Source: Candidatus Aldehydirespirator sp. (lineage in GTDB: Bacteria; Actinomycetota; Acidimicrobiia; Acidimicrobiales; Aldehydirespiratoraceae). From it: DNA of 64,000 nucleotides. The stretch's first letter is position 1; every line of letters begins with the position of its first letter. The notes beneath the pieces were generated by a model. The model did no database searches, was not told where the DNA came from, and worked only from the letters and a program-made list of their open reading frames with translations. The stretch covers positions 3,505,605 through 3,569,604 of the forward strand of contig OZ252146.1 in assembly GCA_965248735.1 (NCBI GenBank), in the 5' to 3' direction. Positions 586 through 54,842 of this stretch are shown here, in pieces. The position numbers were made by a program, and so were the translations under genes.

Positions 586-745
586 GCCGGACCCTGATGC
601 CAGCCCCGCAGCCGAGCCGGTCATGAGCCGGGCCCTGCCACCAGCCCCGCAGCCGAGCCGGTCGTGAGCCGGGTCCCATCAGCCTCCGCAGCCGGGCCGG
701 TCGTGAGCCGGGTCCCATCAGCCTCCGCAGCCGGGCCGGTCTCGG
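582..745 (+). repeat. tandem repeat (41,41,39,39 nt) built on the upp stop / next-gene start junction
   Basis: Units start at cGTGAgccgg (582), cATGAgccgg (623), cGTGAgccgg (664) and cGTGAgccgg (703). The first unit contains the upp TGA (583-585). Unit heads resemble the GTGAGCCAG start at 771. Relay ORFs run 582..626, 623..667 and 664..756. Confidence 0.9.
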
Positions 746-2877: not shown

Positions 2878-3491
2878 ACAAACAGATCTCGGCGACCAGT
2901 GAGGCACCTCCGAACCACGAGTCCTCTCCTGCTGGCGAGTCCGCCATGAGCGCAGAGTCCTCTCCTGCTGGCGAGTCCGCCATGAGCGCAGAGTCCTCTC
3001 CTGCTGGCGAGTCCGCCATGAGCGCAGAGTCCTCTCCTGCTGGCGAGTCCGCCATGAGCGCAGAGTCCTCTCCTGCTGGCGAGTCCGCCATGAGCGCAGA
3101 GTCCTCTCCTGCTGGCGAGTCCGCCATGAGCGCAGAGTCCTCTCCTGCTGGCGAGGCAATCGTCCTCAACGAGACGATCCACCAGCCGACCCGGCTGCGC
3201 ATCATGACGCTGCTCGTCTCCGTGCCGGAAGCAGACCGGCTGGCCTACGGGTTCATCCAGAAGACACTCGGGCTCACCGGCGGAAACCTGACCATCCATC
3301 TGCGCAAGCTTCAGGAAGCGGGCTACCTGTTCATCACCAAGGAGTTCCAAGGCTCCAAGCCCCGCACCTGGGTGCAGGCGACCACCACCGGGCGTCAAGC
3401 CTTCGCCAAGTACCTGTCGAACCTCCAGAGGGCCCTGGGATTGCGTGTTCAAGAAGCCGCTGTCGACGACGGACGGGCAGGTGGGTTGTGA
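2871..3491 (+). CDS. winged-helix (HTH_34/ArsR-like) transcriptional regulator with repetitive N-terminus
   Basis: C-terminal part IHQPTRLRIMTLLV...GFIQKTLGLTGGNLTIHLRKLQEAGYLFI...RTWVQATTTGRQAF matches the wHTH pattern. ATG 2871 overlaps the upstream stop. Confidence 0.75.
   Translation: MVNKQISATSEAPPNHESSPAGESAMSAESSPAGESAMSAESSPAGESAMSAESSPAGESAMSAESSPAGESAMSAESSPAGESAMSAESSPAGEAIVLNETIHQPTRLRIMTLLVSVPEADRLAYGFIQKTLGLTGGNLTIHLRKLQEAGYLFITKEFQGSKPRTWVQATTTGRQAFAKYLSNLQRALGLRVQEAAVDDGRAGGL
2919..3155 (+). repeat. 36-bp in-frame coding tandem repeat (about 6.6 copies, ESSPAGESAMSA)
   Basis: Identical unit gagtcctctcctgctggcgagtccgccatgagcgca repeated head to tail. Each unit carries an in-frame ATG. 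Confidence 0.95.
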
Positions 3492-7010: not shown

Positions 7011-7859
7011 TCAGGCCAGGAGGCTCCGCAACTCGGCCAGGCGCGGGGCTACCACCTCCGCGATGCTCCTGGCCCGCTCGGTCGGCGGGGCCAGAGCGGC
7101 CTCCCCCCAGAGGGCTCGTCCGGCCATGAACCCGGAGCAGCCCTCGGAAACGGCGATCTCCACCTGGTCGCGGTAGGACCGGTAGGAGCCGCCGCCCGAG
7201 AGCAGCGTCCAGGGCATGTGGCACCGCTCGCTGATCTCCGCGCAGGCGGCCGCCCACACACCGCGATCAGGCTCGTGGGCCGGGTCCACCGGGAACGGCA
7301 GCTTGAGCAGATGCGGGTCCATGGCCGCGAAGCGCTCCACGGTCTCGATCACCAGCTCCCGGCGAGCACGTGGGTCGTCGAGCCCGTAGAACAGCGGCTC
7401 CAGCACCAGCGGGATGCCCACGCGCCGGCACCCGGCGAGGATCTCGGCCGCCACCCGCTCCTGGGCTGCACCGTGGGGACGGTCCGGGCGGTACAGCACC
7501 AGCAGCTTGGCCGCAGCTGCCCCCGAAGCCGCGGCCGCGGCAACCGACCAGCCCTCCAGGACCCGCGTTGGGGCAACCTCCGGATCGGCGGCGTAGCCCT
7601 GGGCCTCCAGCGCGGCCGTGAAACCGACCCCGTCGGGCAGCGTGCCGTCGAGGAGCTGCGGGATCGAGTACTCGGGCTCGAGCATCACCCCGGTTGCGCC
7701 CTCAGCCAGCGCGCCCACCAGCTCACGCTTGAGACCGGTTATGGCATCGGCGCCGACCGAGTCCGGATCGTCAGGGGCCAGCACGGCCCGAAGGGAGTCC
7801 CGGTGATCGATGGCGAGCACCGCGAAGCGCCCGCCGTCGGAGATGCCGTCCAGGCTCAC
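7011..7859 (-). CDS. class I (LacD/YihT-type) aldolase, probable 5-dehydro-2-deoxyphosphogluconate aldolase of the iol pathway
   Basis: 282 aa. N-terminal FAVLAIDHRDSLR resembles the LacD/YihT family motif. It is the last gene of the iol operon. The functional assignment is by context. Confidence 0.7.
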   Translation of the reverse strand: MSLDGISDGGRFAVLAIDHRDSLRAVLAPDDPDSVGADAITGLKRELVGALAEGATGVMLEPEYSIPQLLDGTLPDGVGFTAALEAQGYAADPEVAPTRVLEGWSVAAAAASGAAAAKLLVLYRPDRPHGAAQERVAAEILAGCRRVGIPLVLEPLFYGLDDPRARRELVIETVERFAAMDPHLLKLPFPVDPAHEPDRGVWAAACAEISERCHMPWTLLSGGGSYRSYRDQVEIAVSEGCSGFMAGRALWGEAALAPPTERARSIAEVVAPRLAELRSLLA

Positions 7860-7936
7860 AGCAACCCCCAGCCGCTCGATGCTCCGTGCGGGCCCACAAC
7901 CGCACTCCCGCCGCCCACAACCAGACAGGGGCTCAC
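7856..7936 (-). other. 26-codon relay ORF bridging iolB stop and aldolase start
   Basis: GTG 7936-7934 overlaps the iolB TGA (7935-7933). Its TGA 7858-7856 overlaps the aldolase GTG (7859-7857). It contains a decayed junction copy (GGAGTGCGGTTGTGGGCC versus GGAGTGCGGCGGTGAGCC). Confidence 0.4.
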
Positions 7937-11110: not shown

Positions 11111-11760
11111 CGCGCCGTGCTCCCCTCTCCAGCTCCCCGCAACCAGCCCGACCCGAAGGAGCACTCACCGCGCCGCCTCCCATGGCCCGGATCGTTGTCG
11201 ATCGGCCAGCCTGCATCGCGGCCGGCGCGCTCACCGCGCCTCGGCCTGCTGGCGGGGCGCGAGGAGCGACACCAGCCGGCCGTTACGCCGTCCACGTCGT
11301 AGACCTGCATCGCGGCCGGCGCGCTCACCGCGCCTCCGCCCCTCACGGCCACGGCCACGCCGTCCACGTCGTAGACCTGCATCGCGGCCGGCGCGCTCAC
11401 CGCGCCTCCGCCCCTCACGGCCACGGCCACGCCGTCCACGTCGTAGACCTGCATCGCGGCCGGCGCGCTCACCGCGCCTCCGCCCCTCACGGCCACGGCC
11501 ACGCCGTCCACGTCGTAGACCTGCATCGCGGCCGGCGCGCTCACCGCGCCTCCGCCCCTCACGGCCACGGCCACGCCGTCCACGTCGTAGACCTGCATCG
11601 CGGCCGGCGCGCTCACCGCGGTTCCGCCCCTCACGGCCACGGCCACGCCGTCCACGTCGTAGACCTGCATCGCGGCCGGCGCGCTCACCGCGGTTCCGCC
11701 CCTCACGGCCACGGCCACGCCGTCCACGTCGTAGACCTGCATCGCGGCCGGCGCGCTCAC
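11107..11760 (-). repeat. 72-bp tandem repeat (6 intact copies plus about 218 nt of decayed copies) forming one 217-codon bridging ORF
   Basis: The gctcaccgcg junction motif recurs at 11325, 11397, 11469, 11541, 11613, 11685 and 11757. There are two unit variants (gcctccgcc and ggttccgcc). GTG 11760 overlaps the desaturase TGA. The open frame ends with TGA 11109-11107, which overlaps the iolG GTG 11110. Confidence 0.95.
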
Positions 11761-13214
11761 CGCGGTTCCGCCTGCTGGCGAGGAGCGAGGCGCGACACCA
11801 CCCGCCCGTTGCGCACGGCCACGTCGTAGAGGGTGATCGGCTCCGTCGCCGGGAAGCGCAGGGCCTCCCCGGTGCGCAGGTCGAAGCAGCCGCTGTGCTT
11901 GGGGCACTCGATCATGCCGTCGAGCACGGCTGCCTCGGCGAGGTGGGCCCTCCCGTGGGTGCACAGCCCGTCACTCAGCACGAATTCCGCGGTGGGCTCA
12001 ACGCCCCCGGTCTCGGCATCGACCTCGACCCGGTACAGGGCATAGGTGCTGTCACCGTGGTCCACCCGGCGCGCCGATCCGGGGCTCAGACCCTCGGCCG
12101 CGCCGAGGTCGACCAGCCCGTCGTGCACCTCCCCGGCCCACGCGGTGACCCCCGTGTCCACGAACGACCGCTCCTCGCCGGCGACCTCGGGCACGTCGGG
12201 ACGGGGCTCGTCATAGGACGGGTCGCGCCACTGGCGGCGCAGCGTCGCCAAGATCCGCCGGTAGGCGGTCAGCGTGGACGGATCCGGCGGGGCCAGATAC
12301 TCCTTGATCTCGGCATGGAGCGCCGGCAGCGCGTAGTAGGGCACCGTCGGGAAGATGTGATGCTCGACGTGATAGTTCATGTTGGAGTACAGGAACCTGA
12401 GCACCGGGTTCATGTACACCGTGCGGGAGTTGAGGCGATGGTCGAGCACGTCCTCTCGCAGACCCGCATGCTGCGTGACCGCGAAGAACACCATGAGCCA
12501 GGCCCCGTAGACCGTCGGCAGCCCGATGTACAGTGCCGGCACGATCGAGCCGATGGCCACGCACCACACCGCGGTGCCGGCCAGGACGGCGATGTAGGCC
12601 CGCGACTCCCACTTGAGCTTGCCCAACTCGTCGGCGGGGATAAAGTCCCGGGCGTCGTCGTCGATGCGTCCCGCGGCGTGCTTGAGGGTGCGCCACATAG
12701 CCCGGGGGACGTTCAGCACCGGCACGAACACGCCCAGCACGGCCCGCGGTGACGAGGGACGCGAGAACACGATCTCGGGGTCGCGCCCCACGACGATGGT
12801 GTCGGTGTGATGGCGCACATGCGACCAGCGCCACAGGGTGGGCTGGCGCAGCAGCATGAACGACGCGATGTAGTAGACGACATCGTTGAGCCACTTGGCC
12901 CGGAACGCGGTGCCGTGCCCGCACTCGTGCCAGCGGGAGTCGCCGGCGCCGCCGTAGAGGGCACCGTAGGCCATGAACGCCGGCACCGCCCACCACGAGC
13001 CCAGCGCGCGGAAGGCGAGATAGCCGAAGACGGCCAGCAGACCGAGCCACATGATCGTGTCGCGGGCCGCCCGGGCGTTCGTGCGGACCTGCAGAGCCCG
13101 CAGCCGCTCGGCGTCGATGGGCGGGCGGAACCACTCGGCCTCAATCAGGCCGAGATCCACCGCCCGCCGCGAGTCCGCTCCGGTCAGGCCGTAGTCGCGA
13201 ACGGTCGCGGTCAC
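11757..13214 (-). CDS. membrane fatty-acid-desaturase/hydroxylase-family di-iron protein fused to a C-terminal Rieske [2Fe-2S] domain (MocD+MocE-like)
   Basis: His boxes HECGH, HVRHH and HVEHH lie in a polytopic N-terminal part. C-terminal CTHGRAHLAEAAVLDGMIECPKH fits the Rieske pattern (CxH-16-CxxH). Confidence 0.85.
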   Translation of the reverse strand: MTATVRDYGLTGADSRRAVDLGLIEAEWFRPPIDAERLRALQVRTNARAARDTIMWLGLLAVFGYLAFRALGSWWAVPAFMAYGALYGGAGDSRWHECGHGTAFRAKWLNDVVYYIASFMLLRQPTLWRWSHVRHHTDTIVVGRDPEIVFSRPSSPRAVLGVFVPVLNVPRAMWRTLKHAAGRIDDDARDFIPADELGKLKWESRAYIAVLAGTAVWCVAIGSIVPALYIGLPTVYGAWLMVFFAVTQHAGLREDVLDHRLNSRTVYMNPVLRFLYSNMNYHVEHHIFPTVPYYALPALHAEIKEYLAPPDPSTLTAYRRILATLRRQWRDPSYDEPRPDVPEVAGEERSFVDTGVTAWAGEVHDGLVDLGAAEGLSPGSARRVDHGDSTYALYRVEVDAETGGVEPTAEFVLSDGLCTHGRAHLAEAAVLDGMIECPKHSGCFDLRTGEALRFPATEPITLYDVAVRNGRVVSRLAPRQQAEPR

Positions 13215-13291
13215 TGCGGCATCTCCGCGGTCAACAGTTCCGGGCCCGATTCCGGTCCGGGGAGGCCGTAGTCGCGCACGATCGTCCTCAT
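13211..13291 (-). other. 26-codon relay ORF made of a copy of the desaturase head plus the SDR tail
   Basis: ATG 13291 overlaps the SDR TGA (ATGA). TGA 13213-13211 overlaps the desaturase GTG 13214 (GTGA). The peptide is MRTIVRDYGLPGPESGPELLTAEMPQ; compare the desaturase head MTATVRDYGLTGADS and the SDR tail PGPELGPRPAESGTQP. Confidence 0.5.
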
Positions 13292-14142
13292 GGCTGCGTT
13301 CCCGACTCAGCCGGCCGCGGACCCAGTTCCGGTCCGGGGAACACAGAGTCGCCCGCGCCCAGCACGGTCTGGTCCCACTCCACCACCGCGCCGGTCATCA
13401 TCCCCGACTCGGCCGTGGCCAGATGCACGATCGTGCGGGCGATCTCGGAGGGCTTGATCAGCCGGCCGAAGGGCATCTCGGCCTCGGCCCGCTCCAGCCA
13501 TCCGTCGGTGGCGCCGCCGAAGGTCCGCTGCACGATGTCCTCGGCGGGGGTGTCCATCCATCCCGGGCACAGCAGGTTCACGCGGATCCGGTGGCGCATC
13601 AGCGCGAAAGCCAGGTTGCGGGTCATCGCCACCAGCGCCCCCTTGGAGGTGGCATAGGGCAGCAGCTTCGGCGGGCCTCCCCGACCGGCGATCGAGCCGA
13701 TCAGCACGATGGTGCCCTCGACGGACTCTCGGGCCATGATCCGGGCCACCCCTTGGCTGAGCAGGCCCGGCGCCTTCACGTTGACGGCCAGCATGGCGTC
13801 CCACAGCTCGGGCGTGGCGTCCCACACCGAGCCCCGGTCGGTGACGGCCGCGCAGTTGACGAAGCTGTGGCAGGTGCCGAATCTCTCGTCCAGGGCCACG
13901 ATCACCGTCTCGCAGGCATCGGGATGGGCAAGGTCAGCGGCCACGAACTCCGCCCGGCATTCAGGCGTTCGCAGCGAGGCCGCGGCAGCCTCTCCCTTGG
14001 CCCGGTCCCGACCGACCAGCATGAGCCCGGCCGCCCCCTCCGACACCAATCGCTGGGCCACCGCGTAGCCAAGACCCTGGGAGCCGCCGGTGACCAGCGC
14101 GATTCCACGGCTGAACGAACCAAGAGGACGCGGCTCGGTCAT
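13288..14142 (-). CDS. short-chain dehydrogenase/reductase (SDR)
   Basis: ALVTGGSQGLGYA cofactor motif and classical SDR length. ATG 14142 chosen because everything upstream is the 35-bp repeat. Confidence 0.85.
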   Translation of the reverse strand: MTEPRPLGSFSRGIALVTGGSQGLGYAVAQRLVSEGAAGLMLVGRDRAKGEAAAASLRTPECRAEFVAADLAHPDACETVIVALDERFGTCHSFVNCAAVTDRGSVWDATPELWDAMLAVNVKAPGLLSQGVARIMARESVEGTIVLIGSIAGRGGPPKLLPYATSKGALVAMTRNLAFALMRHRIRVNLLCPGWMDTPAEDIVQRTFGGATDGWLERAEAEMPFGRLIKPSEIARTIVHLATAESGMMTGAVVEWDQTVLGAGDSVFPGPELGPRPAESGTQP

Positions 14143-14425
14143 GCGGCCGCGGTCCCAACCCCGGCAGGCTCGGTCATGCGGCCGCGGTCCCAACCCCGGC
14201 AGGCTCGGTCATGCGGCCGCGGTCCCAACCCCGGCAGGCTCGGTCATGCGGCCGCGGTCCCAACCCCGGCAGGCTCGGTCATGCGGCCGCGGTCCCAACC
14301 CCGGCAGGCTCGGTCATGCGGCCGCGGGTCCCAACCCCGGCAGGCTCGGTCATGCGGCCGCGGTCCCAACCCCGGCAGGCTCGGTCATGCGGCCGCGGTC
14401 CCAACCCCGGCAGGCTCGGTCACCG
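14132..14425 (-). repeat. 35-bp tandem repeat (8 intervals, one of 36) encoding a chain of 7 relay mini-ORFs upstream of the SDR gene
   Basis: Minus-strand unit ATGACCGAGCCTGCCGGGGTTGGGACCGCGGCCGC. Start codons at 14423 (GTG), 14388, 14353, 14317, 14282, 14247, 14212, 14177 and 14142 (SDR). Each 12-aa ORF MTEPAGVGTAAA ends in an ATGA shared with the next start. Confidence 0.95.
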
Positions 14426-14454
14426 ACCCGCGCACCCAGCTCCGCACGACACGG

Positions 14455-16338
14455 TCACCAGCCCACCCGCTGGGCGGCGCGGCCCGCGTCCATCGCCGCC
14501 CTGGCCTCCTTCACCGAGGCGCGGCCGCTCACCTCGGGCACGCCCACCTCCCAGAACGAGCCGCCCTCGGTCCAGCGGTGGGGATGGGTCTTGAGGGCGA
14601 TCACGTAAGTGCGGTCGGAGGCTCTGGCCCGCTCGATGGCCGACTCCAGCTCGGAGATGGAGCCCACCGTCTCGGTCTCGCAGCCCATCGAGGCCGCATG
14701 GGCCGCGAAGTCGACAGCGACCAGCCGCTCGGTGCGGCAGTCCTCGAAGAGATTGTTGAACGAGGCGCCGCCCTGATTGACCTGGAGCCGGTCGATCACC
14801 GCGTAGCCGCCGTTGTCGGCCACGATCACGATGAGCTTGTGCCCGGTGAGCACCGTGCTGTACAGGTCACTGTTCATCATGAGGTAGGAGCCGTCGCCCA
14901 GCAGCACCACCACCTCGCGCTCGGGCATCGCCATCTTGGCGCCCCAGGCGCCTGAGATCTCGTAGCCCATGCACGAGTAGCCGTACTCGCAGTCAAAGGA
15001 ATGCACCGTGCGGGCGCGCCAGCCGTTGACGAGCTCGCCGGGCAGGCCCCCGGCCGCGGCGACGACGTAGGTGGAGGCGTCCGCGGCCCGGTCCACCGCC
15101 CCCACCACCTGGGCGTAGGTGGGCAAGTCGGCGTGAGGGTCCGAAGATCGGTCGCCGCCGGTGGCCGCGACAGTCACTGGCGCGGCGATCTTGTCGATGT
15201 AGGCGTGGTACTGCGCGGTCTCCGACGCAGCCCGCACCGTCCAGTCGCCGCTGGCCCGGTAGTCGCTGAGGGCCGTGCCCAACTCCCGGAGGCCCTCGCG
15301 GGCGTCGGCCACTAGCGGCAGGCACATGTGCTTGGTGGCATCGAAGCGGGCCGCGTTGAGCCCGACGATCTCTGCGGACTCGTCGCCGAACACCGTCCAT
15401 GAGCCGGTGGTGAAGTCCTGCATTCTCGTGCCCACCGCCAGCACCACATCGGCGTCGGCGGCCATGGCGTTGGCCGAGACGCAGCCGGTCACTCCGATGG
15501 GGCCGCAGTTCAGCGGATGGTGCGCCGGCAGTGAGGTGCGGCCCGCGGTGGTCTCTACCACGGGGATGCCGTGGGCTTCGGCGAAGGCGGCGAGCTGCTC
15601 CTCCGCCAGCGACCAGCGCACCCCTCCGCCCGCGATGATGAGGGGGCGCTCGGCTCGGGCCAGCGCAGCCGCGGCCCTTCGCAGCTCGCCCGCGTCGGGG
15701 CGGGGCCGGCGGATGTGGTGCACCCTCTCGGCGAAGAACCCGACCGGATAGTCGTAGGCCTCGGCCTGAACGTCCTGGGGCAGGGCGATGAAGGCCGGGC
15801 CGCAGTCGCCGGGGTCGAGCATGGTGTTGAGAGCCTGGGGCAGCGACTGCACCACCTGCTCGGGGGTGGTGATCCGGTCCCAGTAGCGCACTACCGCCCG
15901 GAAGGCGTCGTTGACGGTGGTGGCCGGCGCCCCGAAGTGCTCCACCTGCTGCAGCACCGGGTCCACGATGCGATGCTCGAAGGTGTCGCCGGCCAGCAGC
16001 AGCAGCGGCAGCCGGTTGGCGAGCGCCACCGCGGCCGCGGTCACCATGTTGGTGGCGCCGGGGCCGATCGAGCTGGCCGCCACCATGATCCGGCGGCGCT
16101 TGGCGGCCCGGGCGAACCCGCAGGCGGCCAGCGCCATCCCCTGCTCGTTCTGGCCCCGCCAGGTGGGCAGCACATCCTGTGCCTGCTCGAGCTCGTGGCC
16201 GAGGCAGGTCACGTTGCCGTGGCCGAATATGGCGAACACGCCCGCGAACAGCGGCACCACCTGACCGTCGACCTCGATGCGCTGGGCAGCCAGGTAGCGC
16301 ACCACGGCGCCCGATGCAGTCAGCCTGATCGTGTCCAC
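14455..16338 (-). CDS. iolD: 3D-(3,5/4)-trihydroxycyclohexane-1,2-dione acylhydrolase (ThDP-dependent)
   Basis: 627 aa with ThDP-enzyme layout and the GDGSYLM cofactor motif. The N-terminus IRLTASGAVVRYLAAQ is typical of IolD. Confidence 0.9.
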   Translation of the reverse strand: MDTIRLTASGAVVRYLAAQRIEVDGQVVPLFAGVFAIFGHGNVTCLGHELEQAQDVLPTWRGQNEQGMALAACGFARAAKRRRIMVAASSIGPGATNMVTAAAVALANRLPLLLLAGDTFEHRIVDPVLQQVEHFGAPATTVNDAFRAVVRYWDRITTPEQVVQSLPQALNTMLDPGDCGPAFIALPQDVQAEAYDYPVGFFAERVHHIRRPRPDAGELRRAAAALARAERPLIIAGGGVRWSLAEEQLAAFAEAHGIPVVETTAGRTSLPAHHPLNCGPIGVTGCVSANAMAADADVVLAVGTRMQDFTTGSWTVFGDESAEIVGLNAARFDATKHMCLPLVADAREGLRELGTALSDYRASGDWTVRAASETAQYHAYIDKIAAPVTVAATGGDRSSDPHADLPTYAQVVGAVDRAADASTYVVAAAGGLPGELVNGWRARTVHSFDCEYGYSCMGYEISGAWGAKMAMPEREVVVLLGDGSYLMMNSDLYSTVLTGHKLIVIVADNGGYAVIDRLQVNQGGASFNNLFEDCRTERLVAVDFAAHAASMGCETETVGSISELESAIERARASDRTYVIALKTHPHRWTEGGSFWEVGVPEVSGRASVKEARAAMDAGRAAQRVGW

Positions 16339-16363: not shown

Positions 16364-17536
16364 TCAATCGATCCTCACCGACACGACGTCCGTCCAGGCG
16401 CCGGTCTCCCAGCTTCGCAGCAGCGCCGCCTGCACGCTCACGTACTCCAACGCCTGCTCGAGGCCGGCCGAGTGGGGCCGGTCCTCGGCGACCGCCGTGA
16501 GGAACTCGTAGTCCTGGATCGTTACCACGTCCTCGAATCCGATCGAGTTGGCCTCACCCGGGACAAAGTCGCTATGGAAGGGATGCCGCTCGCCGGCAAA
16601 AACTGTGGTGTAGCCCTGGTCGCCGCGGCCGAGCTGGAACATCCGGATCTCGTTCATCGTCTCCAGGTTCCAGCTGAGCGCGCCCTCGGTGCCGTGAACG
16701 TCGAAGGCCATCTGGCTCTGAGGCCCAACCATCGTCCGGCTGGCCTCGAAAGTGCCGCGACTGCCGTTGGCGAACACGGCCATAGCGCCGAAGTAGTCCT
16801 CGTTGGTGACCACGCCCACCGGGTCGCCCGGCACGCCCCGGTCGTAGTGGGTTCCCGACGCGGACGGCAGCGGCCTCTCCTTGATGAACGTCTCGCCGGT
16901 TCCCACCACCCGCAGGATCGGGCCGTTGAGCATCATCGCCAAGTCGATGGCGTGGCTGAGGATGTCGGTGGACACGCCGTGCCCCGCCTGATCGAGCAGG
17001 AAGCGCCATGTGAGCAGGCCGAGCGGGTCGGCGCCGTACACCGACAGGAAGCGGCCCCGATAATTGGTGATCTGGCCCAGCTCGCCGGAATCGATCAGGT
17101 TGCGGACGTGCTGCACGAGCGGCACGAACCGGTAGTTGTAGCCGACCCCCGTGATGACCCCTGCGTCGCGGCAGGCCTTCTCGGCCCGGGCCGTCTGCTC
17201 GGGGGTGCCCCCGACCGGCTTCTCGCAGAACACGTGCTTTCCCGCTCCGGCGGCCGCCTCGACGATCTCGCAGTGCAGTATGTTGGGCGCGCAGATCACG
17301 ACAACGTCCACCTCAGGGTGCTCGACCGCGGCTCGCCAGTCGCCGGTGGTGTGACGGAAGCCGAAATCGGTGGCCGCCGAGGAGCGCCGCTCTGCCAGCG
17401 TGTCAGCGCATACCGTCAGCTCGGGCCGGCACGCGAGGCCGTCGAAGATCATGGGCAGGCGCGCGTAGGAGCGGGCGTGGGCCTGGCCCATCCAGCCGAA
17501 GCCGATCACCGCCATGCCCAGGCGGCGGGCGCTCAT
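16364..17536 (-). CDS. Gfo/Idh/MocA family oxidoreductase (second inositol/inosose dehydrogenase candidate)
   Basis: MAVIGFGWMGQAHA Rossmann motif and the FCEKPVGG EKP motif. ATG 17536 gives a family-typical N-terminus; the track start at 17761 adds an Arg/Pro-rich extension. Confidence 0.85.
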   Translation of the reverse strand: MSARRLGMAVIGFGWMGQAHARSYARLPMIFDGLACRPELTVCADTLAERRSSAATDFGFRHTTGDWRAAVEHPEVDVVVICAPNILHCEIVEAAAGAGKHVFCEKPVGGTPEQTARAEKACRDAGVITGVGYNYRFVPLVQHVRNLIDSGELGQITNYRGRFLSVYGADPLGLLTWRFLLDQAGHGVSTDILSHAIDLAMMLNGPILRVVGTGETFIKERPLPSASGTHYDRGVPGDPVGVVTNEDYFGAMAVFANGSRGTFEASRTMVGPQSQMAFDVHGTEGALSWNLETMNEIRMFQLGRGDQGYTTVFAGERHPFHSDFVPGEANSIGFEDVVTIQDYEFLTAVAEDRPHSAGLEQALEYVSVQAALLRSWETGAWTDVVSVRID

Positions 17537-17598
17537 CGGACTCCGCCACCGGCGGCGGCCGGGTCGAGCGAGGTCGAAGGGTTGCCAGGCGCGGTCAT
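17533..17598 (-). other. 21-codon relay ORF bridging the 2-HADH stop and the Gfo oxidoreductase start
   Basis: ATG 17598 overlaps TGA 17597-17595. TGA 17535-17533 overlaps ATG 17536. Peptide MTAPGNPSTSLDPAAAGGGVR. Confidence 0.35.
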
Positions 17599-29823: not shown

Positions 29824-29879
29824 CTATGATCAATTCTGAACCTATGATGTACCATAAGTTATAATTCATCATAAGTTAT
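29824..29879 (+). promoter_or_regulatory. AT-rich candidate promoter/operator region of the giant gene
   Basis: TATAAT at 29860-29865. Direct repeats CATAAGTTAT at 29853-62 and 29870-79 (each contains the small palindrome ATAAGTTAT). CTATGAT at 29824-30 and 29842-48. The local AT content is very unlike the flanks. Confidence 0.4.
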
Positions 29880-29895
29880 CGTTGACTGGAAGTCA

Positions 29896-32800
29896 TTGTC
29901 TCTGACGTCTTGCGCAAGGAATCCGCCGGGGGGTGTGGGCGTGCGTGAGCGACCGCGCCGACAGGTGTCGGTGGCGGCGCTGCTGACCGCGGCGCTCCTG
30001 GCCGTGGCCGCGCCGACGCCTGCTCACGCCGACTCGCATCCGGTGGTGACGGTGGCTGCGGGCACGGTGCCGAACACGTTCAGCGCCACCGACGACGACC
30101 CGCACGACACCACCTGGCACTACGCGTGGATCACCGGCAGCGACCCGTGCGGGCCCTCGACCACGTTCCCGTCTGCGCAGACCTACGCCGAGGGCAACGA
30201 CGTCTCCTATGGCACCAGCAACCTCGGCCAGAGGCTGTGCTTGCGCGCCGTGGACTCCAGCAGCAACACGGGCTACGCCACGTCGGACATCGTCGACCAC
30301 CTGGCCCCACCCAGGGTCCCGTTCCGAATCGGCGAGATCATGGCCACGCCCGGCGACGAGTCGGTCACCCTCACATGGGAGGCGCCCTACGACGGCGGCT
30401 CGCCCATCACCCAATACGTAGTCCTCAGCAACCCACCAGGCGGCCTCTGCATCACCAGCGTCCCGGGCTGCACCATGACCGGGCTCGCCAACGGCACCGC
30501 CTACGACTTCGAGGTGAGCACCTTCAACGCTATTGGCTACGAAGACTCCTTCTTCCCGCTACAAGTCACACCCACCGCCGACCCACCGGCCACAGACCCA
30601 CCAGCCACAGACCCACCGGTGACCGACCCACCGGCCACAGACCCACCAGCCACAGACCCACCGGTGACCGACCCACCGGCCACAGACCCACCGGCCACAG
30701 ACCCACCGGTGACAGACCCACCAGCCACAGACCCACCGGTGACCGACCCACCAGCCACAGACCCACCGGTGACCGACCCACCAGCCACAGACCCACCGGT
30801 GACCGACCCACCAGCCACAGACCCACCGGTGACCGACCCACCAGCCACAGACCCACCGGTGACCGACCCACCAGCCACAGACCCACCGGTGACCGACCCA
30901 CCAGCCACAGACCCACCGGTGACCGACCCACCAGCCACAGACCCACCGGTGACCGACCCACCAGCCACAGACCCACCGGTGACCGACCCACCAGCCACAG
31001 ACCCACCGGTGACCGACCCACCAGCCACAGACCCACCGGTGACCGACCCACCGGTGACCGACCCACCGGCCACAGACCCACCGGCCAAAGACCCACCGGT
31101 GACCGCACCAGGCGGAAGCGGAGGCAGTGGGTCCTCGGGCGGCGACGGTGAGCGCGCCGCGCGGACTACGGAAACGACGACGCTGTCGGGCATCACCGTC
31201 GATGGGACCGCGATCCCCGACTTCGATGCGGAGCGGGACTCGTACACGGTCGGGCTCGCCAACGGCGTGGCCACCGCGACCGTGGCGGCCACACCGACCG
31301 CGAGCTCCGCCACCGTGACGTGCTCGGTCGATGCCGATGGCAATGCGGCCGGATGCCAGGTCGCGCTCACGGCGGGCGCGGGAGTCGACCTGACCCTGAC
31401 CGTGACCGATAGCTCGGCAACGATGGACTACACGCTCACGCTCAACCGCGGCCTGACCGGCACCTTCGCGTGGAAGGCGTCCGACGACATCTACGGCCTG
31501 GCCGCCGTGCTTGGAGAAAACACCAGCAGGACGAGGGGCATTTGGAGCGACGGCACCACGTTGTGGGTCGCCGACAATGACCGAAGGAATTCGAAGCTGG
31601 TCGCCTTCAACCTCGAAACCAAGGCACGACAGTCGCTCAACGACATCAACACGGGTGCGAGCGACCTTCTTCATGTGCGCAGGCCGGTGGGCGTCGCGGG
31701 AACTGACGACGGCTCGGTGCTGGTCGCCCGCAGACACAACGGACTCACTGAACAGGCCAGGATTCAAGGATTCCGTCGAAACGACGCATCAGAGTGGCAG
31801 CCCGACATCGAGGAGAGCTATGTACTGCCGTCCGATATTATTCTTGCTCCGTCAATCAGAGGCATCTGGACTCACGGAGAACGGCTGTATATCGCCGACG
31901 ATAGCTCAGACAATGCGGTCTTGGCATTCACCTGGAACTCTGACCGCTCCAACATGGTGCACGATTCCCCCGGGGACATCACTCTCGCCAGCGAGAACGA
32001 CAGTCCGGCCGGCATATGGTCCGACGGCGAGACGATATGGGTCGCCGACGCCCTGACGGAACGAATCTTTGCCCACAAGACGGTCGACGGCCAGCGTGAC
32101 ACCGCCAAGGAGTTCACCCAGAGCCACCTGACCGTGAAGGACACTCCCATCAAACCCTGGGGCATCTGGTCCGACGGCGAGACGATGTGGGTAGTCGACC
32201 GCGGCACCGCGATCGTCTACTCCTTCAACCTGCCGGTGTCGAACAACCCGGGGCTGAGTCAGCTCGAGGTTCAGCACGGGGAGGATCCTGTCGAGCTCAG
32301 TGTGGCCGAGACCACGCACACGGTGGTGCTGCCGGGCAGTCCGACCTCGACAACGTTGACGATTGCGCCGCGCAACCGCTTCGCGACCGTAGACGTCCTC
32401 CCGGCCGATGCCAACCTCAGCCTCGGCGGGTACCAGGTCGACCTGACCGGCGGCCCGGTCGAGGTCACGATCACGGTGACCGCGGCCGACGCCACAACAA
32501 GGCAGGTCTACACGGTCACGGTCGGGCCCGCGCCACTCGAGATCACGAGCGTCATCGCGACGCCCAACACCCGTCTGCTGCAGGTGAGCTGGCACGAACC
32601 GTCGAACAGCGCGACCTTGGGCGTGACCGCCTACGACTTGCGCTACGCACGCACCGACGCAGACAACCTCGAGAACGACGACCAGTGGACCGTGATCGAC
32701 GATGTCTGGACCACGGGCGGCGGCGACCTCTCCTACATCCTCAGGGGATTGACCAACGGTCAGGCCTACTACGTCCAGGTGCGCGCGGTCAACGCCCTGC

Positions 32801-35800
32801 GCGAGGGACCGTGGCTTCCCCACGAGCGCATCAGCGAGTCTGCAACCGGCACGCCCGCGGCTTCAACCTCGCTCGATGCCAGTCTCAGCGCCATCACGGT
32901 CAACGGCGCGGCGATTCCCAACGTTGCAATGGACCGCGGCAACTACACGGTGGGCGTCGCCAGCTCGGTCGCGACGGCGACGGTGATCGGCACACCCAGG
33001 GATGTCGGCGCGACCGTTTCGTGCATCGACGACTCCGATCCGGTGGCCGACGGATGCCAGGCCTCCCTCACTGAGAATGGCAGCACCGAAGTCCAGCTCA
33101 CCGTGACGATAGGCACCACCGTCGGCAACTACACGATCACGATCAACCGCGGGCGAGGCGGGACCTTCCACTGGAAGGCGTCGCAGGACATCTACGGCCT
33201 GGACGCATCTTTGACCACGAGCTTCCCGCGGGGCATCTGGAGCGACGGCACCACGCTGTGGGTGGTGAACAACGGAACACCGAAAGGGTTGTTCGCCTTC
33301 GATCTGGAGACCGGGGCGCGCCAACCCCAAGCGGACATCGTGCAGACACTCGCGGAGACTCAGGCCAGCCTGCGCGGGCTCGCCGGAGCCGACGAGATGA
33401 TATTCGTGGCCGACTCCAAACCCACCAATGCCCTCCGGTACACCAAAGTGTTCGCCTACACCCAGGGCTCGAGCGGCGACTGGCAGCACAACCCACTCCT
33501 CGATCTCACCGGCTCGTCCGTGGGACTCCTGGACACGAACACAATTCAGGGCATCTGGACGGACGGCGAGGTGCTCTGGGGATCCGTCGGAGGAGCCATT
33601 CGCGCCGTTTGGCTCACCGGCCCGAGCAGGAACCAGCGCCTACCGGCGAGAGACTTCGGTATTGCGTCACTCTCACAGTTCCGCGGCCTATGGTCCGACG
33701 GCGAGACGATGTGGGCTGCGGAGTCCTCCGAGATCCGTGCCTACGACATGCTGACCAGAGCGCACGTTGCGAGCAAGTCGTTCGACAGCGACCACCTGCG
33801 GGTGCCAGGCTCGACGGTCGATCCTTGGGGCATCTGGTCCGACGGCGAGACGATGTGGGCCGTCGACAGCGTCAAGGGGAACGCCTACTCCTTCGAGATG
33901 CCCGTCTCGAACAACGCGACGCTGCAACACTTGCGGATCGACGGTGTGGACGCTGCGGAGTTCGACCGGGAGCTGAGCAGCCAGACCCTCGGCCTTGCCA
34001 ACGACGCCTCTACCATCACCCTCGACGCGCGCCCGCGACACTTCCAGGCCGAGTACCTCATCACCTCAACCGACGACGACAGCATGGAAGGGCACCAGAT
34101 CGACGTATCGGGCGCGGCCAAGACCTTCACCGCCACCGTTACCGCGCAGGACGCCGTGACGACGAAGACATACAGCATCGAGATCGGGCGCCTGCCCGCG
34201 CTGATCGTCGGCGCCGACGCGACCCCCGGCCCCAACAGCCTGAGCGTCGGCTGGAGCGCGCCCTCCGACCCGGGCTCATCGGCCGTCACGAGCTACGACC
34301 TGCGCTACGCGGCGACACAGACAGAGCGGTTGCACGAGGATTCTCGATGGACCGAGGTTCCCGGCGTCTGGCAGACCGGGGGCGGCACGCGGTCGCACCA
34401 GATCAGCGGTCTCGACCCGAGAGACGAGTACTACGTGCAGGTCCGCGCCAACAACGGGGTCGGCTCCGGCCCGTGGATGCCGCACTCACGGATCGGCGAG
34501 TCGGGACGCGGCACGCCACAGGCCTCCGGCTCCGATGTCTCTTCACTGAGCAGTCTCAGCGTCAGCCCGGGGGCGCTGTCGCCCGGCTTCGACGCCGGCA
34601 CGACCGGCTACTCCGTGGAGCTGGGCTTCTCGGTCGAACGGATCACCGTTGCCGCCGCGACGACCGACTCGAACGCCGACTACGAGATCCTGGGAGGCAG
34701 CGAGCAGACAACGCTGGTCGACGCCGACCCGAACACGCCCGGATTCGAGGTGGATGTCCCCGCGGGGGCCTACACGATCACGGTCAGCGTGACCTCCCAG
34801 CATCTCCTCGAATCGACCGACTACACGATCAGCATCACCCGGGCCGCCGCCGCAACCGATGCCAATCTGTCGGTCCTCTCGCTCAACGACGCCGATCTCG
34901 ACGAACTGCTGGACTTCGACACCGCCACGACCTCCTACACCTTCGCTGTCCCGAACGACTCTGCTCGGATCACGGTGACGGCGACGGCGCGCAGCGCGAG
35001 GGCCACGATCGCCTTCCTCGACGGCGCCTCGGGCACAGTCGAGCTCCCGGACGCCGATCGGAGAGCGAACGGCTTCCAGATCGATCTCATCGGGGGCCAA
35101 CAGAAGACGTTCAGGGTCGTGGTGACCGCGGAGTCCGGCACCAAGAGGACGTACACGCTGAGAGTCACCCGCTCCCAGCCGCGGGTCGGCGTGGAGGTCG
35201 TGCCGCCCCTCGACGGCGACGCGAACGAGATTCCCTATGTCGAGGGCGACTCGCTGAACTTCACGGTCTCCTTGGGGTCGGCCCTGTCGTCAGACGTCGA
35301 CGTGGCCTACACATTGACCGGCGACATCGTAGCTGGGGCGACCTCGGGCACGGCCAGGATCGTCGCCGGCCAGACCTCGGTCGATGTGACCGTGCCGACC
35401 AGCGGCAACACGCTCTACTCCGACCACCACACGGTGACGCTGACGCTCACCGCTCCCGGCGACGGCGCCTACGCATTCGTGACGAACAAGCAGTCGGTCG
35501 CCGTCGAGGTTCGCGACGACGACTTTCCCGACATCAGCAATGCCGTTGCCGATATGGAAGTGGACGGCACGAGCGTGGTGGAGGGGGGCACCGTCACCGT
35601 GACGGTGCGGATTGAGTTGGACAGCCTCACAGACTTCCCCCACGCGAGTTCGACGCCTGTCCGGCTCTACACGGCAGACCGTCCAGCGAACACGCCAGGA
35701 GATAAAGCGACCGCGGGCGACGACTACCAGGCGCTGGACGTACAGGTCTCCATACCGCCGGAGAACTTCGAAATCGGCAACGGCTTCTTCGGCCCAACAA

Positions 35801-38800
35801 TTGTCGGGACCGCCACCCTCGAGATTCCGATCCTCTTCGACCCCGAGGCCGAGGCCGCCGAGCAGTTCGACGTCCACCTCTCCGACAGCCGCTTCGCATA
35901 TGCCTTCGTAGTCACCCGTTCGCAGACCATCACGATCGCGGCGAACGCGGCAGCCTCGACCGAGGCCGCGCTGGGCTCGCTGAGCGCGTCGCCCGCGGCG
36001 CTCACTCCAGACTTCGCCCCGACGACGTACTCATACGCCGGGTCGGTGGCCAGCACCGTCACGCAGGTGACGCTGGCCGCCGCGCCCAGCGACCCCGACG
36101 CCCACCTGGTGGAGTACCTCGACGACAACAACGACGCGATCGTCGACGCCGACGGCAACGAGGGCAACGGCCTCCAGGCGGCGCTGGCGGTCGACCGCAA
36201 CGTGTTCACGGTGAGAGTCACCGCGGAGGACCGCGCCACCACGCAGGACTACACCGTCACCATCACCCGGCGCCTGTCCGATGTGGCCACCCTCAGCGCC
36301 CTCACGATCCGCGACAGCGCGGCCACGGGCACGTTCACCCAGTCGTTCTCCACCAACTGCAACACCTGCACCCACACCGCACGGGTCGACGGCGACGTGG
36401 AGCAGCTGACGATCACGCCGACGCCGACCGACCAAGACGCCTCGGTCAGCTACCACCGCGGCGATACCGAGCTGTCCGACGCCGACACCGCAACGGCGGA
36501 CACGTTCGAAGTCGACCTCGCGGAGGGCGACAACGTGATCGAGGTCAGGGTCACCGCGGGCGACGGCACAACCACCAAGAGCCATACCCTGACCGTCACC
36601 CGGGCCAGCGACAAACCCGTGGCCAGCGTCCGTGCGCCCACGGGCACGCCCGTCGAGGGCGCCACCCTGGCGTTCGCGGTCAGGCTGTCACGAGCAGCCG
36701 AAGCGGACATCACCATCGGCCTCAGCGCAACACAGACCGGCACCATGATCGTCGCCAAACCACCGAGCGTCACGATCGCGGCGGGCGACACCTCGGCCAC
36801 CGCCGAGGTGACCACCCAGGCCGATCTCATCTGGGAGGAGCACTCCGAAATCACGCTGGAGATCGACGCCAGCACCAACGACGACTACACCGTGAGCGGC
36901 TCCGCCGGCAGCGCCACAAAGACCGTCCAGGACGACGACTTCCCACTCGGCGATGCGGTGCTCGCCCTCACCGCAGACACCGTCGACGAAGGCACATCCG
37001 TCACCGCCACCGTGACCGTCACGACACGGGGCGACGAGCAGCCGCACACCGCCAGCGGGCACATGGTGATAGCGACCGAGGACGGCGTCGGCAGCGGCGG
37101 TGCCGTCTCGCCGGCCGACTTCACGGCTGTGACCGCCCGGCGCTTCAACCTGCCCATGAACAGGTTCACGCAGGTGGACGTCGACGACGATCCCGTAGCG
37201 GAGGACCCTCGCTGGCGGGCCGCCTATGAGCTGACGATCAACACCGTCAACGATGCCAACCCCGAGGTCGCGGAGACGTTCGACGTGCTGCTCCGCACCG
37301 ACTCCACCAGCGAGCACGCCGACAAGCTGTCGGTGTCGGGCTCGCCGGCCACGGCCACCATCCGCACCAGCGACTTCGCCGAGGTGAGGATCAGCAGCAC
37401 GAAGTCCGACAGCACCGAGGGCGCCAGCATCAGCTACACCGTCACACGCTCGGGACCGGCGGCGACAGCGGACATCGTCGTCAACCTGGCCGTCGAAGAA
37501 GACGGCGACATGCTGTCGGCGAGCGACGAGGGCGAGCGGACGGCGACCATCCCCGCCAACCAGAGCTCGACGACGTTCACGCTTCCGACGCAGACCGACA
37601 CCATCTACGAGGAGCACTCCACGATCACGGTCACCGTCGTCGACGGCGGCGGCTACACCCACCGCGAGGCGACCGGCCGCGCGACCGACGTCATCGACGA
37701 CGACGACTTCCCCGCAGCGCAGGCGACGCTGGCCGTCTCCGCGCCCCAGCTCGACGAGGGCGACACCCTGACGCTGACCTACACCGTCACCACCGACGCC
37801 AACGAGATCCCCCACCGCGGCACCGGCCTGCTGCGGGTGGCGGCCGCGTCGGGCACGGCCACTGCCGGGCTCGACTTCGCCGGGCTCGACGAGCAGCTGG
37901 ACTTCGAGGTGGACGACTTCGAGGAAGTCGACGTCGACGACACCGTCAGCGGTGAAGACCTGCGCCGGCAGGCCACCAAGGAATGGGAGATCCTGATCAC
38001 CGACGACAACTCCGGAGAACGGGCCGAGACGTTCACCGTCTCGCTGCGCAGCATCAGCGGCGGATCCAACCCGACCGCGGCCAACATCGACATCGCACCC
38101 TCCGACCCCGCCGAGCTCACGGTCACCATCGGCCCCAGCGACCTTCCGATCATCAGCATCACCACGGACACGGCAACCGTCGTCGAGGGCAACGCCATCG
38201 AATACACCGTGGCCCGCAGTTTCGCCACGACCGAGGCGCTGATGGTCACGGTCGTCGTCACCGAGACCAGCACCCTCGCCGCCGCCGGCGAGACCGGCGA
38301 CCGCACAGTCACCATCGGTGCCGGCCGGCCGTCGGCGACGCTCATCGTGGCCACTTCGACCGACACCGAGTGGGACGAGCACGGAACGGTAACGGCGGTG
38401 GTCGTCGCAGGCGACGGCTACACGGTCAGCGACAGCCGACGAGCGGCGACGCGCAACGTGGAGGACAACGACTTCCCCGAGGCCAGCCTCAGCCTGCAAA
38501 ACAGTCCCGCCACGGTCTGGGAAGGCTTCGACCAATCGCTCGGGTATCTGTTCCTGACCGCCGACGACCACCAGCCCCACAAGTCCACCGGCGAGTTCAT
38601 CCTCTCGATCCTCGGCGGCACCGCGGTCGTGGGACCGCGGGGCGACGGCGTCGACGTGATCGAATTCGAGCCGCTGGTCTTCAGCGTCGACGCGGGCAGC
38701 TTCACGCGAGTCGACCTCGACCTCGGCCCGGGCTTCGACTGGCGTTGGAGCGCGAGCACAATCACCTCGCGACGCCTCAATGTGGTCGATGACATCGATG

Positions 38801-54320: not shown

Positions 54321-54443
54321 CAGCTGGCGGGATCCGCAGCGCGGGCCATACCGTCGAGCACTGTCAGCTCTCCGGATCGGCGGCGCCGGCCATACCGTCG
54401 CTCTCCGGATCCGCAGCGCGGGCCATACCGTCGAGCACTGTCA
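54320..54443 (-). repeat. duplicated rbfA/truB junction (77 + 41 nt) with two relay mini-ORFs
   Basis: GTG 54438..TGA 54364 encodes VLDGMARAADPESDGMAGAADPES. GTG 54361..TGA 54320 encodes VLDGMARAADPAS. The last TGA shares its A with the truB ATG. Heads resemble the truB start MLLDGI and tails resemble the rbfA end LLDGMAGAADPES. Confidence 0.85.
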
Positions 54444-54842
54444 GCTCTCCGGATCGGCGGCGCCGGCCATACCGTCGAGCAGCCTCTCTATGCGTTCGGC
54501 CGAGCGCAGCGCGGTGTCCGGGCGGAACACCAGCTCGGGTGTGCGCCGCAGCCGGGTCTGGTCCCCGACGGTGCGCCGCAGTTCGCCAGCGTGTTCCTCG
54601 AAGGCCTCGGCTATGTCGATGTCGCCGTCGTCGTCGTCGGTATCGCCCAGCGACGTGAACCACACCACTGCTCGGTGCAGGTCACGGTCCACATCCACGG
54701 ATGTCACCGACACCATGGCCAGCCGGTCATCGTCCAGTTGCTCCATGGACTCGGCGACTATGCGCCTGATGAGCTCGCCTACCCGGGCGGTGCGGTGACC
54801 GGCCCGGTGGTCGGGCTGGGAGCGTCTCGTGCGTCGTGTCAT
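54441..54842 (-). CDS. rbfA: ribosome-binding factor A
   Basis: RVGELIRRIVAESMEQL...VSVTSVDVDRDLHRAVVWF is typical of RbfA. Synteny between infB and truB. Confidence 0.88.
   Translation of the reverse strand: MTRRTRRSQPDHRAGHRTARVGELIRRIVAESMEQLDDDRLAMVSVTSVDVDRDLHRAVVWFTSLGDTDDDDGDIDIAEAFEEHAGELRRTVGDQTRLRRTPELVFRPDTALRSAERIERLLDGMAGAADPES

Follow-up and report, generated by a model that had tools for sequence, protein, structure and literature searches.

A 26-codon open reading frame between an SDR gene and a desaturase-Rieske gene in an uncultured Acidimicrobiia lineage: an old tandem copy of an overlapping stop/start junction

How does a small open reading frame come to lie between two genes of an operon in such a way that it opens on the stop codon of the one and closes on the start codon of the other, and does it serve any purpose there? 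The question is raised by a locus in a 64-kb window (the whole stretch of DNA that was analysed, with a G+C content of 69%) from an uncultured Acidimicrobiia lineage. The closest relatives are MAGs labelled Acidimicrobiaceae, Acidimicrobiales or Acidimicrobiia, and several of them carry sponge-type bin names. The genes concerned all lie on the minus strand, and the gene of a short-chain dehydrogenase/reductase (SDR) and that of a desaturase-Rieske fusion belong to a co-oriented string of genes, with a unit of 77 nt between them that holds a mini-ORF of 26 codons. The mini-ORF is very probably one extra, old and diverged tandem copy of the 77-nt stop/start junction; a misalignment of repeats would account for it, and its role, if any, would be to pass ribosomes on between the two genes.

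Genes at the junction and the functional desaturase start

The three reading frames at the junction are as follows.
14142 to 13288, minus strand (13288..14142): SDR gene; Pfam adh_short_C2 (7e-46) and adh_short (2e-43).
13291 to 13211, minus strand (13211..13291): mini-ORF of 26 codons, encoding MRTIVRDYGLPGPESGPELLTAEMPQ followed by the stop; no Pfam family.
13214 to 11757, minus strand (11757..13214): fusion gene of a fatty-acid desaturase and a Rieske [2Fe-2S] domain, with a GTG start at 13214; Pfam FA_desaturase (8e-39) and Rieske (3e-10).

The SDR probably starts at the ATG at 14142..14140, within the last unit of a 35-nt array that lies upstream, which gives a protein of 284 amino acids, the same length as the ortholog in the relative L082. 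Its C-terminal tail, ending in FPGPELGPRPAESGTQP before the stop, is orthologous to the tails in L082 (24/33 nt) and L083 (22/33 nt). A previous sequence-only reading of this DNA had described the mini-ORF as opening in an ATGA on the SDR stop and closing in a GTGA on the desaturase start, and the coordinates bear this out. The ATG of the mini-ORF (13291..13289) overlaps the SDR stop TGA (13290..13288) to form ATGA (13291..13288), and its own stop TGA (13213..13211) overlaps the desaturase start GTG (13214..13212) to form GTGA (13214..13211). The same reading spoke of a spacer of 77 nt; this is correct as the spacing of the two NTGA junctions, but the stretch that belongs to neither flanking gene is 73 nt long (13287..13215). 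Purine runs resembling Shine-Dalgarno (SD) sequences precede both starts, GGGAA before the ATG of the mini-ORF and GGAG 10 nt before the GTG of the desaturase. There is no gene call at this site in L081, the other genome that carries the insert.

Both the mini-ORF and the desaturase gene begin with a desaturase-like head. Among 120 homologs, the N-terminus of the desaturase family follows the pattern M-x(3-5)-RDY-x-L-T/V-G, and 34 aligned homologs all have R6, D7, Y8 and G12. The N-terminus of the desaturase, VTATVRDYGLTG, aligns with the M-x3-4-RDYxLTG start of the homologs. Since RDYxLTG is the conserved N-terminal motif of the family, the copy at 13214 is the functional desaturase head, and the RDYGLPG of the mini-ORF a redundant copy of it. 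It was also considered whether translation of the desaturase might in fact begin at the ATG of the mini-ORF and shift frame later; this was rejected, as the GTG at 13214 yields the N-terminus of all homologs, 4-5 residues before RDY.

The duplicated unit, its joint and the ancestral junction

The sequence-only reading had held that the first 12 codons of the mini-ORF are a diverged copy of the desaturase start and that its end copies the 3' end of the SDR gene. The first part was upheld: identity to the desaturase start is 28/36 nt over the first 12 codons and 36/48 nt over the first 16, and the peptides share 9/15 residues. When aligned locally with the first 81 nt of the desaturase gene, the mini-ORF scored 47, compared with 16.4±2.7 for dinucleotide shuffles (n=2000), none of which reached 47 (0/2000). 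On aligning the mini-ORF with the last 81 nt of the SDR gene, a score of 31 was obtained, compared with 15.7±2.6 for shuffles, of which 1/2000 reached it. Both scores thus exceed the shuffled controls that had been proposed for judging the similarity. The copied SDR 3' end was upheld as well. A 14-mer of the mini-ORF, TCCCCGGACCGGAA, is found exactly in the SDR 3' end, but the distal portion that had been quoted (the mini-ORF tail ending in CCGCAGTGA against the tail of its own SDR ending in CAGCCATGA) is weak when taken alone (16/33 in register, p ~0.02). When the 33 nt ahead of the mini-ORF stop are compared with the SDR 3' end of L083, 24/33 positions agree, a value reached by 0/5000 shuffles.

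The head and tail alignments are both in register and form a single self-similarity, shifted by 77 nt, that covers ~13356 to ~13170 and dips midway. The identity at this shift is 0.76-0.86 at both ends of the unit and 33-43% between the copies in its middle, where homology follows from the comparison with relatives and compensating indels may be hidden. When the 77-nt unit was searched against the 64-kb window (blastn-short), its only significant matches were to its own two flanks, as two exact 14-mers. Tandem Repeats Finder (TRF) did not report the repeat even at a minimum score of 30, because the copies are too diverged. The parts of the duplication are the following.
13352 to 13276, minus strand (13276..13352): copy A of the 77-nt unit, made up of the last 61 nt of the SDR gene up to the ATGA and the head of the mini-ORF; from the shift-77 self-identity profile.
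13275 to 13199, minus strand (13199..13275): copy B of the unit, made up of the tail of the mini-ORF up to the GTGA and the first 16 nt of the desaturase gene; from the same profile.
13198 to 13173, minus strand (13173..13198): third occurrence of the boundary motif GCGACTACGGCCTGACCGGAGCGGAC, at desaturase codons 6-14; from the same profile.
13276 to 13250, minus strand (13250..13276): duplication joint; from the blastn-short search of the unit against the window.

Copies A and B are identical at 47 of 77 positions (61%), and copy B keeps the junction type of the relatives, as indicated by the match of its distal tail to that of L083. At the joint, 13276..13263 (CGCGACTACGGCCT) is identical to 13199..13186 in the desaturase gene, and 13263..13250 (the 14-mer already mentioned) is identical to 13340..13327 in the SDR gene. 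The two exact 14-mers, one from each flank, therefore abut at and share base 13263, which places the joint to one base. The boundary motif occurs three times in the window at a spacing of 77 nt (13352, 13275 and 13198), and the joint lies inside the middle occurrence; the duplication ends at a short direct repeat, of which the third occurrence forms the downstream member.

The orthologous SDR-desaturase junction was recovered from 13 other genomes. It had been expected that relatives lacking the duplication would show a direct NTGA overlap, and this was found in 11 of them (L001-L006, L082, L083, L084, L088 and L089; desaturase 83-86% identical), which have a 4-nt GTGA or ATGA and no insert. 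One exception was observed: L007 has a different and unrelated spacer of 146 nt at this junction, with a 49-codon ORF of the same relay geometry that is unlike its flanks, which hints that the geometry itself may be maintained. The insert is carried only by the window and L081, the desaturases of which are 96% identical. No further carriers were found in the metagenome contigs that were scanned with the joint as a degenerate codon pattern; three unrelated chance matches were returned. In a neighbour-joining (NJ) tree of the desaturase, the window and L081 group with L084, L007, L088, L082 and L083, and the sister group consists of L001-L006 and L089. Single-copy junctions thus occur on both sides of the window lineage, and therefore the insert is the derived state.

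The single-copy SDR tails of L082 and L083 resemble both copies in the window, and hence both copies descend from a junction of the L082/L083 type. Before these two genomes were compared, the mini-ORF tail had been seen to resemble the tails of L001-L003, and the SDR tail of the window that of L005. For each single-copy relative, a duplication was also made in silico by joining the first 29 nt of its desaturase gene to the last 48 nt of its SDR gene and an NTGA. The chimeras from L083 and L088 agreed with the real mini-ORF at 62/81 and 61/81 positions, respectively, compared with 22.7±4.3 (maximum 38) for random 81-mers from the same loci.

The end points of the duplication can be recognized in the single-copy relatives as well. 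The segment 61-36 nt before their junction, in the SDR gene (GCGACTCGGTGTTCCCCGGACCGGA), and the segment 16-41 nt after it, in the desaturase gene (GCGACTACGGCCTGACCGGCGGGGA), are imperfect direct repeats that lie exactly 77 nt apart, with 13-16 of 26 positions matching in 8 of the 11 genomes. The background is 7.5±2.3 matches, and the observed values are among the top 0.07-2% of positions. The exceptions are L003, with 11/26, and L004 and L084, which differ in the length of the tail. The locus thus shows head-to-tail copies with a constant period, a single copy in relatives and a direct repeat at the end points that holds the joint, as is expected of a tandem duplication.

With regard to the age of the event, the mini-ORF is identical over its 81 nt in the window and L081. 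This is no sign of constraint, because the two genomes diverge by only ~1-2% near the site. At four-fold degenerate sites of the desaturase gene, the window is 62-74% identical to the single-copy relatives and 96% identical to L081. The 61% identity of the two copies is similar to the former values, which indicates that the duplication is old; it dates back roughly to when the window lineage and the nearest single-copy lineages sampled parted, long before the window and L081 separated. The earlier suggestion that the insert shows the mechanism has to be qualified accordingly: the event is an old one, with copies that are 61% identical, and does not provide a fresh snapshot.

The anatomy of the unit suggests the following course of events. 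The ancestor had a 4-nt NTGA overlap between the SDR and desaturase genes, and two imperfect short direct repeats (beginning GCGACTnnGnnnTCnCCGG) 77 nt apart, of which the first fell within the last ~20 codons of the SDR gene and the second within desaturase codons 6-14. Misalignment between these two repeats would then have duplicated the intervening segment, either by replication slippage or by unequal exchange, which look alike in these data. The unit includes the NTGA and has a length of 3n+2 nt, so that the extra copy opens on the SDR stop and closes on the desaturase start, with the copy of the desaturase head first and that of the SDR tail after it. The geometry follows from the length, since an NTGA-containing unit of 3n+2 nt passes from the frame of the downstream gene to that of the upstream gene of the next copy and so stops exactly on the next NTGA. 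After the duplication, the SDR gene retains its tail and stop, and the desaturase gene its head and the GGAG upstream of it; the duplication is tolerated because both enzymes keep their native ends.

Neighbouring arrays, possible translation of the mini-ORF and other explanations

The junction studied here is not the only one in its operon to be affected. Two of the other repeats are arrays at neighbouring junctions, and a third lies elsewhere in the window.
14132 to 14422: array of a 35-nt unit, 8.3 copies, at the junction of the TPP-enzyme and SDR genes; same operon, one gene upstream.
11285 to 11772: array of a 72-nt unit, 6.8 copies, at the junction of the desaturase and MocA genes; same operon, one gene downstream.
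54330 to 54477: repeat of a 77-nt unit, 1.9 copies, 100% identical, at rbfA/truB; in the window.

Every unit of the 35-nt array is a 12-codon ORF, and the units are chained by ATGA; one diverged unit lies ahead of them and is also present in L082. Units at the TPP/SDR junction are of 37-38 nt in L001-L003, of 33 nt (2.8 copies) in L004 and of 35 nt in L082 and the window, and L083 has two units; L005, L006 and L084 simply have a GTGA overlap there. At the desaturase/MocA junction, the 72-nt array has 6.8 copies in the window against 2.8 in L081; in L089 there is a 50-nt unit whose head is identical at 39/40 positions, and L084 has two units of ~63 nt. In a unit at the KduI/DeoC junction of L004, both the head and the tail can be recognized. 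Altogether, there are about eight sites of junction duplication in the 64-kb window, and 5 of the 9 junctions of one operon are affected. The units of five other arrays in the window are unrelated to the 77-nt unit and to each other.

A mechanical scan was made for ORFs of 6-60 codons that overlap the stop of a long upstream ORF and the start of a long downstream ORF by 4 nt each. It gave ~27 matches in ~210 kb of clade sequence, a few of which are probably false, compared with six in ~600 kb from other taxa; as one operon is sampled repeatedly among the clade loci, these counts are not independent. Across this Acidimicrobiia clade, junction duplications of all ages recur, and so do doubly overlapped mini-ORFs. 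It may be, though the proposal is a tentative one and somewhat against the odds, that junction-spanning tandem duplication is a systematic process in the clade that turns 4-nt overlaps into chains of relay mini-ORFs and VNTR-like arrays, the geometry being selected for coupling. If so, the -4 overlaps and the 3n+2 length would outlast the similarity to the flanks, as in the 146-nt spacer of L007 and a 92-nt spacer of L082, and there would be a model of local origin for MIRU-type intercistronic repeats in Actinomycetota.

The arrays also bear on the number of copies that the junction once had. The insert could be what remains of a multi-copy array that shrank until a single extra copy was left, with divergence following afterwards; near-identical multi-copy arrays are present one gene upstream and one gene downstream in the same operon, and the copy number of the 72-nt array evidently varies. 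However, no trace of more copies was found, as the similarity at shift 77 ends at the third boundary motif, which is present in single-copy relatives also, and such a history is not recoverable from two diverged copies. This explanation is considered unlikely. The sequence-only reading had proposed one tandem duplication across the stop/start junction, in support of a model for the multi-copy arrays: the duplication is well founded, with 61-62/81 matches for the in-silico products, but 'one' cannot be told apart from a larger array that has collapsed.

As for function, termination-reinitiation at overlapping ATGA/GTGA is an established mechanism of translational coupling (Huber et al. 2019, PMC6728339; review PMC12548453). 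The junction has the sequence features of a coupled pair, namely overlapping stops and starts (ATGA and GTGA) and no match to a promoter or terminator within 12900-13600. The mini-ORF would then be translated: ribosomes that end on the SDR would reinitiate on the mini-ORF, end 26 codons on and reinitiate on the desaturase. Since termination-reinitiation at such overlaps is established, a relay is the likeliest 'function' of the mini-ORF, which is most likely without function as a peptide and, if it acts at all, would be a neutral or nearly neutral relay that keeps the translational coupling.

It is very unlikely that the mini-ORF is a functional micropeptide or a regulatory leader peptide kept for its own sake. 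Its frame has stayed intact despite a divergence like that of four-fold sites between genera-level relatives, and SD-like purine runs precede both starts; an open frame is weak evidence, however, as by our own estimate ~60% of random 24-codon stretches are free of stops at 69% G+C. Of 12 more distant relatives that have this operon, 11 lack the mini-ORF, and its sequence is fully accounted for as the head and tail of its neighbours. A leader peptide or attenuator would be marked by a conserved peptide together with alternative RNA structures or a terminator. Here, the peptide had no match in Pfam and is missing in relatives, no terminator was matched, the spacer belongs to no Rfam family, and its RNA structure is not unusual (fold z = -1.0).

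That a MIRU-like mobile or dispersed element, with its own coupled mini-ORF, was inserted at the desaturase start codon is highly improbable. The insert resembles MIRUs in its size of 77 nt, in lying between cistrons and in having a -4 overlap at either end (PMC12548453; units of 77 bp and 53 bp, PMC4213456), but the unit matches only its own two flanks in 64 kb, the other junction arrays are unrelated to it, and each of its halves shows homology both with the adjacent genes and with the single-copy junction of the relatives. Chance similarity in G+C-rich coding DNA, in which short motifs such as CCGGACCGG recur randomly and on which TRF is silent, or an assembly artefact can be set aside almost entirely, since the alignment scores were reached by only 0 and 1 of 2000 shuffles and have independent support from the relatives, and since the same diverged insert is present in the independent assembly L081 and an artefact would yield identical copies rather than ones that are 61% alike.

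Comparison with known systems

Tandem duplication between short direct repeats (microhomology), or slipped-strand mispairing, is an established mutational mechanism. The mini-ORF has in common with it the head-to-tail copies, the bounding imperfect repeat that already exists in unduplicated relatives, and the joint inside that repeat. There is no mechanistic difference; what is unusual is the position exactly over an overlapping stop/start, where the duplication is silent for both proteins. Taken alone, the insert is an ordinary tandem duplication between short repeats at a harmless place. It is modestly interesting as such, and more so as an instance of a process that recurs across the clade. 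In the limited literature searched, no earlier account was found of bacterial duplications that span a junction in this way, nor of repeats in the Acidimicrobiia of sponges. The birth of a small ORF can be traced fully at this locus, as all its parts come from its neighbours and the ancestral state is extant in relatives. As the locus shows, overlapping stop/start junctions are safe sites for tandem repeats, in that the protein ends are kept and a unit of 3n+2 nt is automatically coupled at both ends, and the near-identical multi-copy arrays at the neighbouring junctions could modulate translational coupling by their copy number.

On comparison with pairs of genes coupled by termination-reinitiation, the canonical 4-nt overlap is found at both ends of the mini-ORF, and the ancestral junction, as seen in 11 relatives, is one such overlap. 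The difference is that two overlaps are placed in series here, with a 26-codon ORF between them, and that the coupling here is a presumed one. Short 'ribosome-delivery' ORFs coupled to annotated genes have been described in mycobacteria (Shell et al. 2015, as cited in PMC12548453). The mini-ORF likewise is short, and plausibly does no more than pass ribosomes on to the gene that follows it; most of those ORFs are 5'-proximal uORFs whose origin is not known, whereas the mini-ORF is internal to an operon and its origin can be traced.

The closest resemblance in form is to the MIRUs, which are described as dispersed, related units that are regarded as mobile, are found only in mycobacteria, and are intercistronic with a small ORF and -4 overlaps (Supply et al. 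1997, as cited in PMC12548453). The MIRU units of senX3-regX3 in M. tuberculosis are of 77 bp and 53 bp (PMC4213456). The insert agrees with them in being an intergenic unit of ~77 nt (within the range of 40-100 bp) between two genes of an operon, in its small ORF with -4 spacing to both flanks, and in a unit length of 3n+2 (77 and 53 in M. tuberculosis; 77 and 35 here); as at MIRU-VNTR loci, the neighbouring junctions bear tandem arrays of variable copy number. It differs in that each unit here is built from its two adjoining genes, that no dispersed family was found within the 64 kb searched, and that the host is an uncultured member of the Acidimicrobiia and not a Mycobacterium. MIRU-like intercistronic repeats have until now been regarded as mobile elements, and the locus suggests an origin for them that can be tested. 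Judged from its sequence, the insert appears to work like a MIRU without being one: it is a locally generated equivalent, with a presumed relay function.

Arrays flanking the SDR and desaturase genes

11285-11772, minus strand: array of a 72-nt unit (6.8 copies) at the desaturase/MocA junction, beginning on the desaturase stop (GTGA)
14132-14457, minus strand: array of near-identical 35-nt units (8.3 copies) between the TPP-enzyme stop and the start of the short-chain dehydrogenase/reductase (SDR) gene

The start of the 72-nt unit, GTGAGCGCGCC, resembles that of the following units, and its end, ...GGCGGAGGCGCG, resembles the tail of the desaturase. The copy number of this array is only 2.8 in L081, the closest of the relatives' loci, versus 6.8 in the window. 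Elsewhere among these loci, single units of other lengths lie at this junction (92 nt in L082, 68 nt in L083 and 50 nt in L089), L084 carries a double unit of 2 × ~63 nt, and the junction in L088 is a direct overlap. At the second array, the TPP-enzyme stop is a GTGA (14458..14455, minus strand) and the 35-nt unit is a 12-codon ORF, MTEPAGVGTAAA, each being chained to the next by ATGA; an extra C brings one unit to 36 nt. An older, diverged unit at 14457..14423 is common to the window and L082. In L081, every unit of this array is 36 nt long, and the units are therefore in frame and form an N-terminal extension of the SDR.

Doubly overlapped ORFs with and without recognisable flank copies

L007 3855-4004: 49-codon ORF with a period of 146 (3n+2) at the SDR/desaturase junction, the same junction as that of the window's 77-nt insert
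7856-7936, minus strand: 26-codon mini-ORF with a period of 77 at the KduI/DeoC junction
17533-17598, minus strand: 21-codon mini-ORF with a period of 62 at the 2-hydroxyacid-dehydrogenase/MocA junction

The ORF in L007, a relative's locus, begins on the stop codon of the SDR gene and terminates on the start codon of the desaturase gene, is richer in T than its surroundings and showed no similarity to either flank (SDR or desaturase); it has the relay geometry without a recognisable duplication origin. The flank similarity of the two window mini-ORFs is no longer significant; at the KduI/DeoC junction of L004 and L006, head plus tail are still recognisable in a 74-nt unit.

Repeats elsewhere in the window

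54330-54477, minus strand: 77-nt repeat (1.9 copies, 100% identical) covering the stop codon of rbfA and the start codon of truB
601-741, plus strand: 39/41-nt array (3.6 copies) beginning on the GTGA stop of an ORF that ends at 585
2919-3155, plus strand: 36-nt array (6.6 copies, 100% identical) with ATGAGCGCA in each unit
29875-47799, plus strand: giant open frame of ~5,970 codons with high GC3
30580-31105: internal 30-nt repeat of this frame (17.5 copies)
47103-47643: internal 192-nt repeat of this frame (2.8 copies)

The microhomology CTGCTCGACGG occurs both in the tail of rbfA (..RLLDGMAGAADPES*) and in the head of truB (MLLDGIAV..). The repeat has the appearance of a junction duplication of recent date, within a core translation operon, infB-rbfA-truB. 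Units of the 39/41-nt array open with (G/A)TGAGCCGG, resembling the start of the next ORF, GTGAGCCAG. The 36-nt unit reads in frame as MSAESSPAGESA, and the final unit runs on into ...IVLNETIHQPTRLRIMTLL, apparently the N-terminal sequence of a winged-helix regulator; this array is a repeated gene start, not a stop/start junction.
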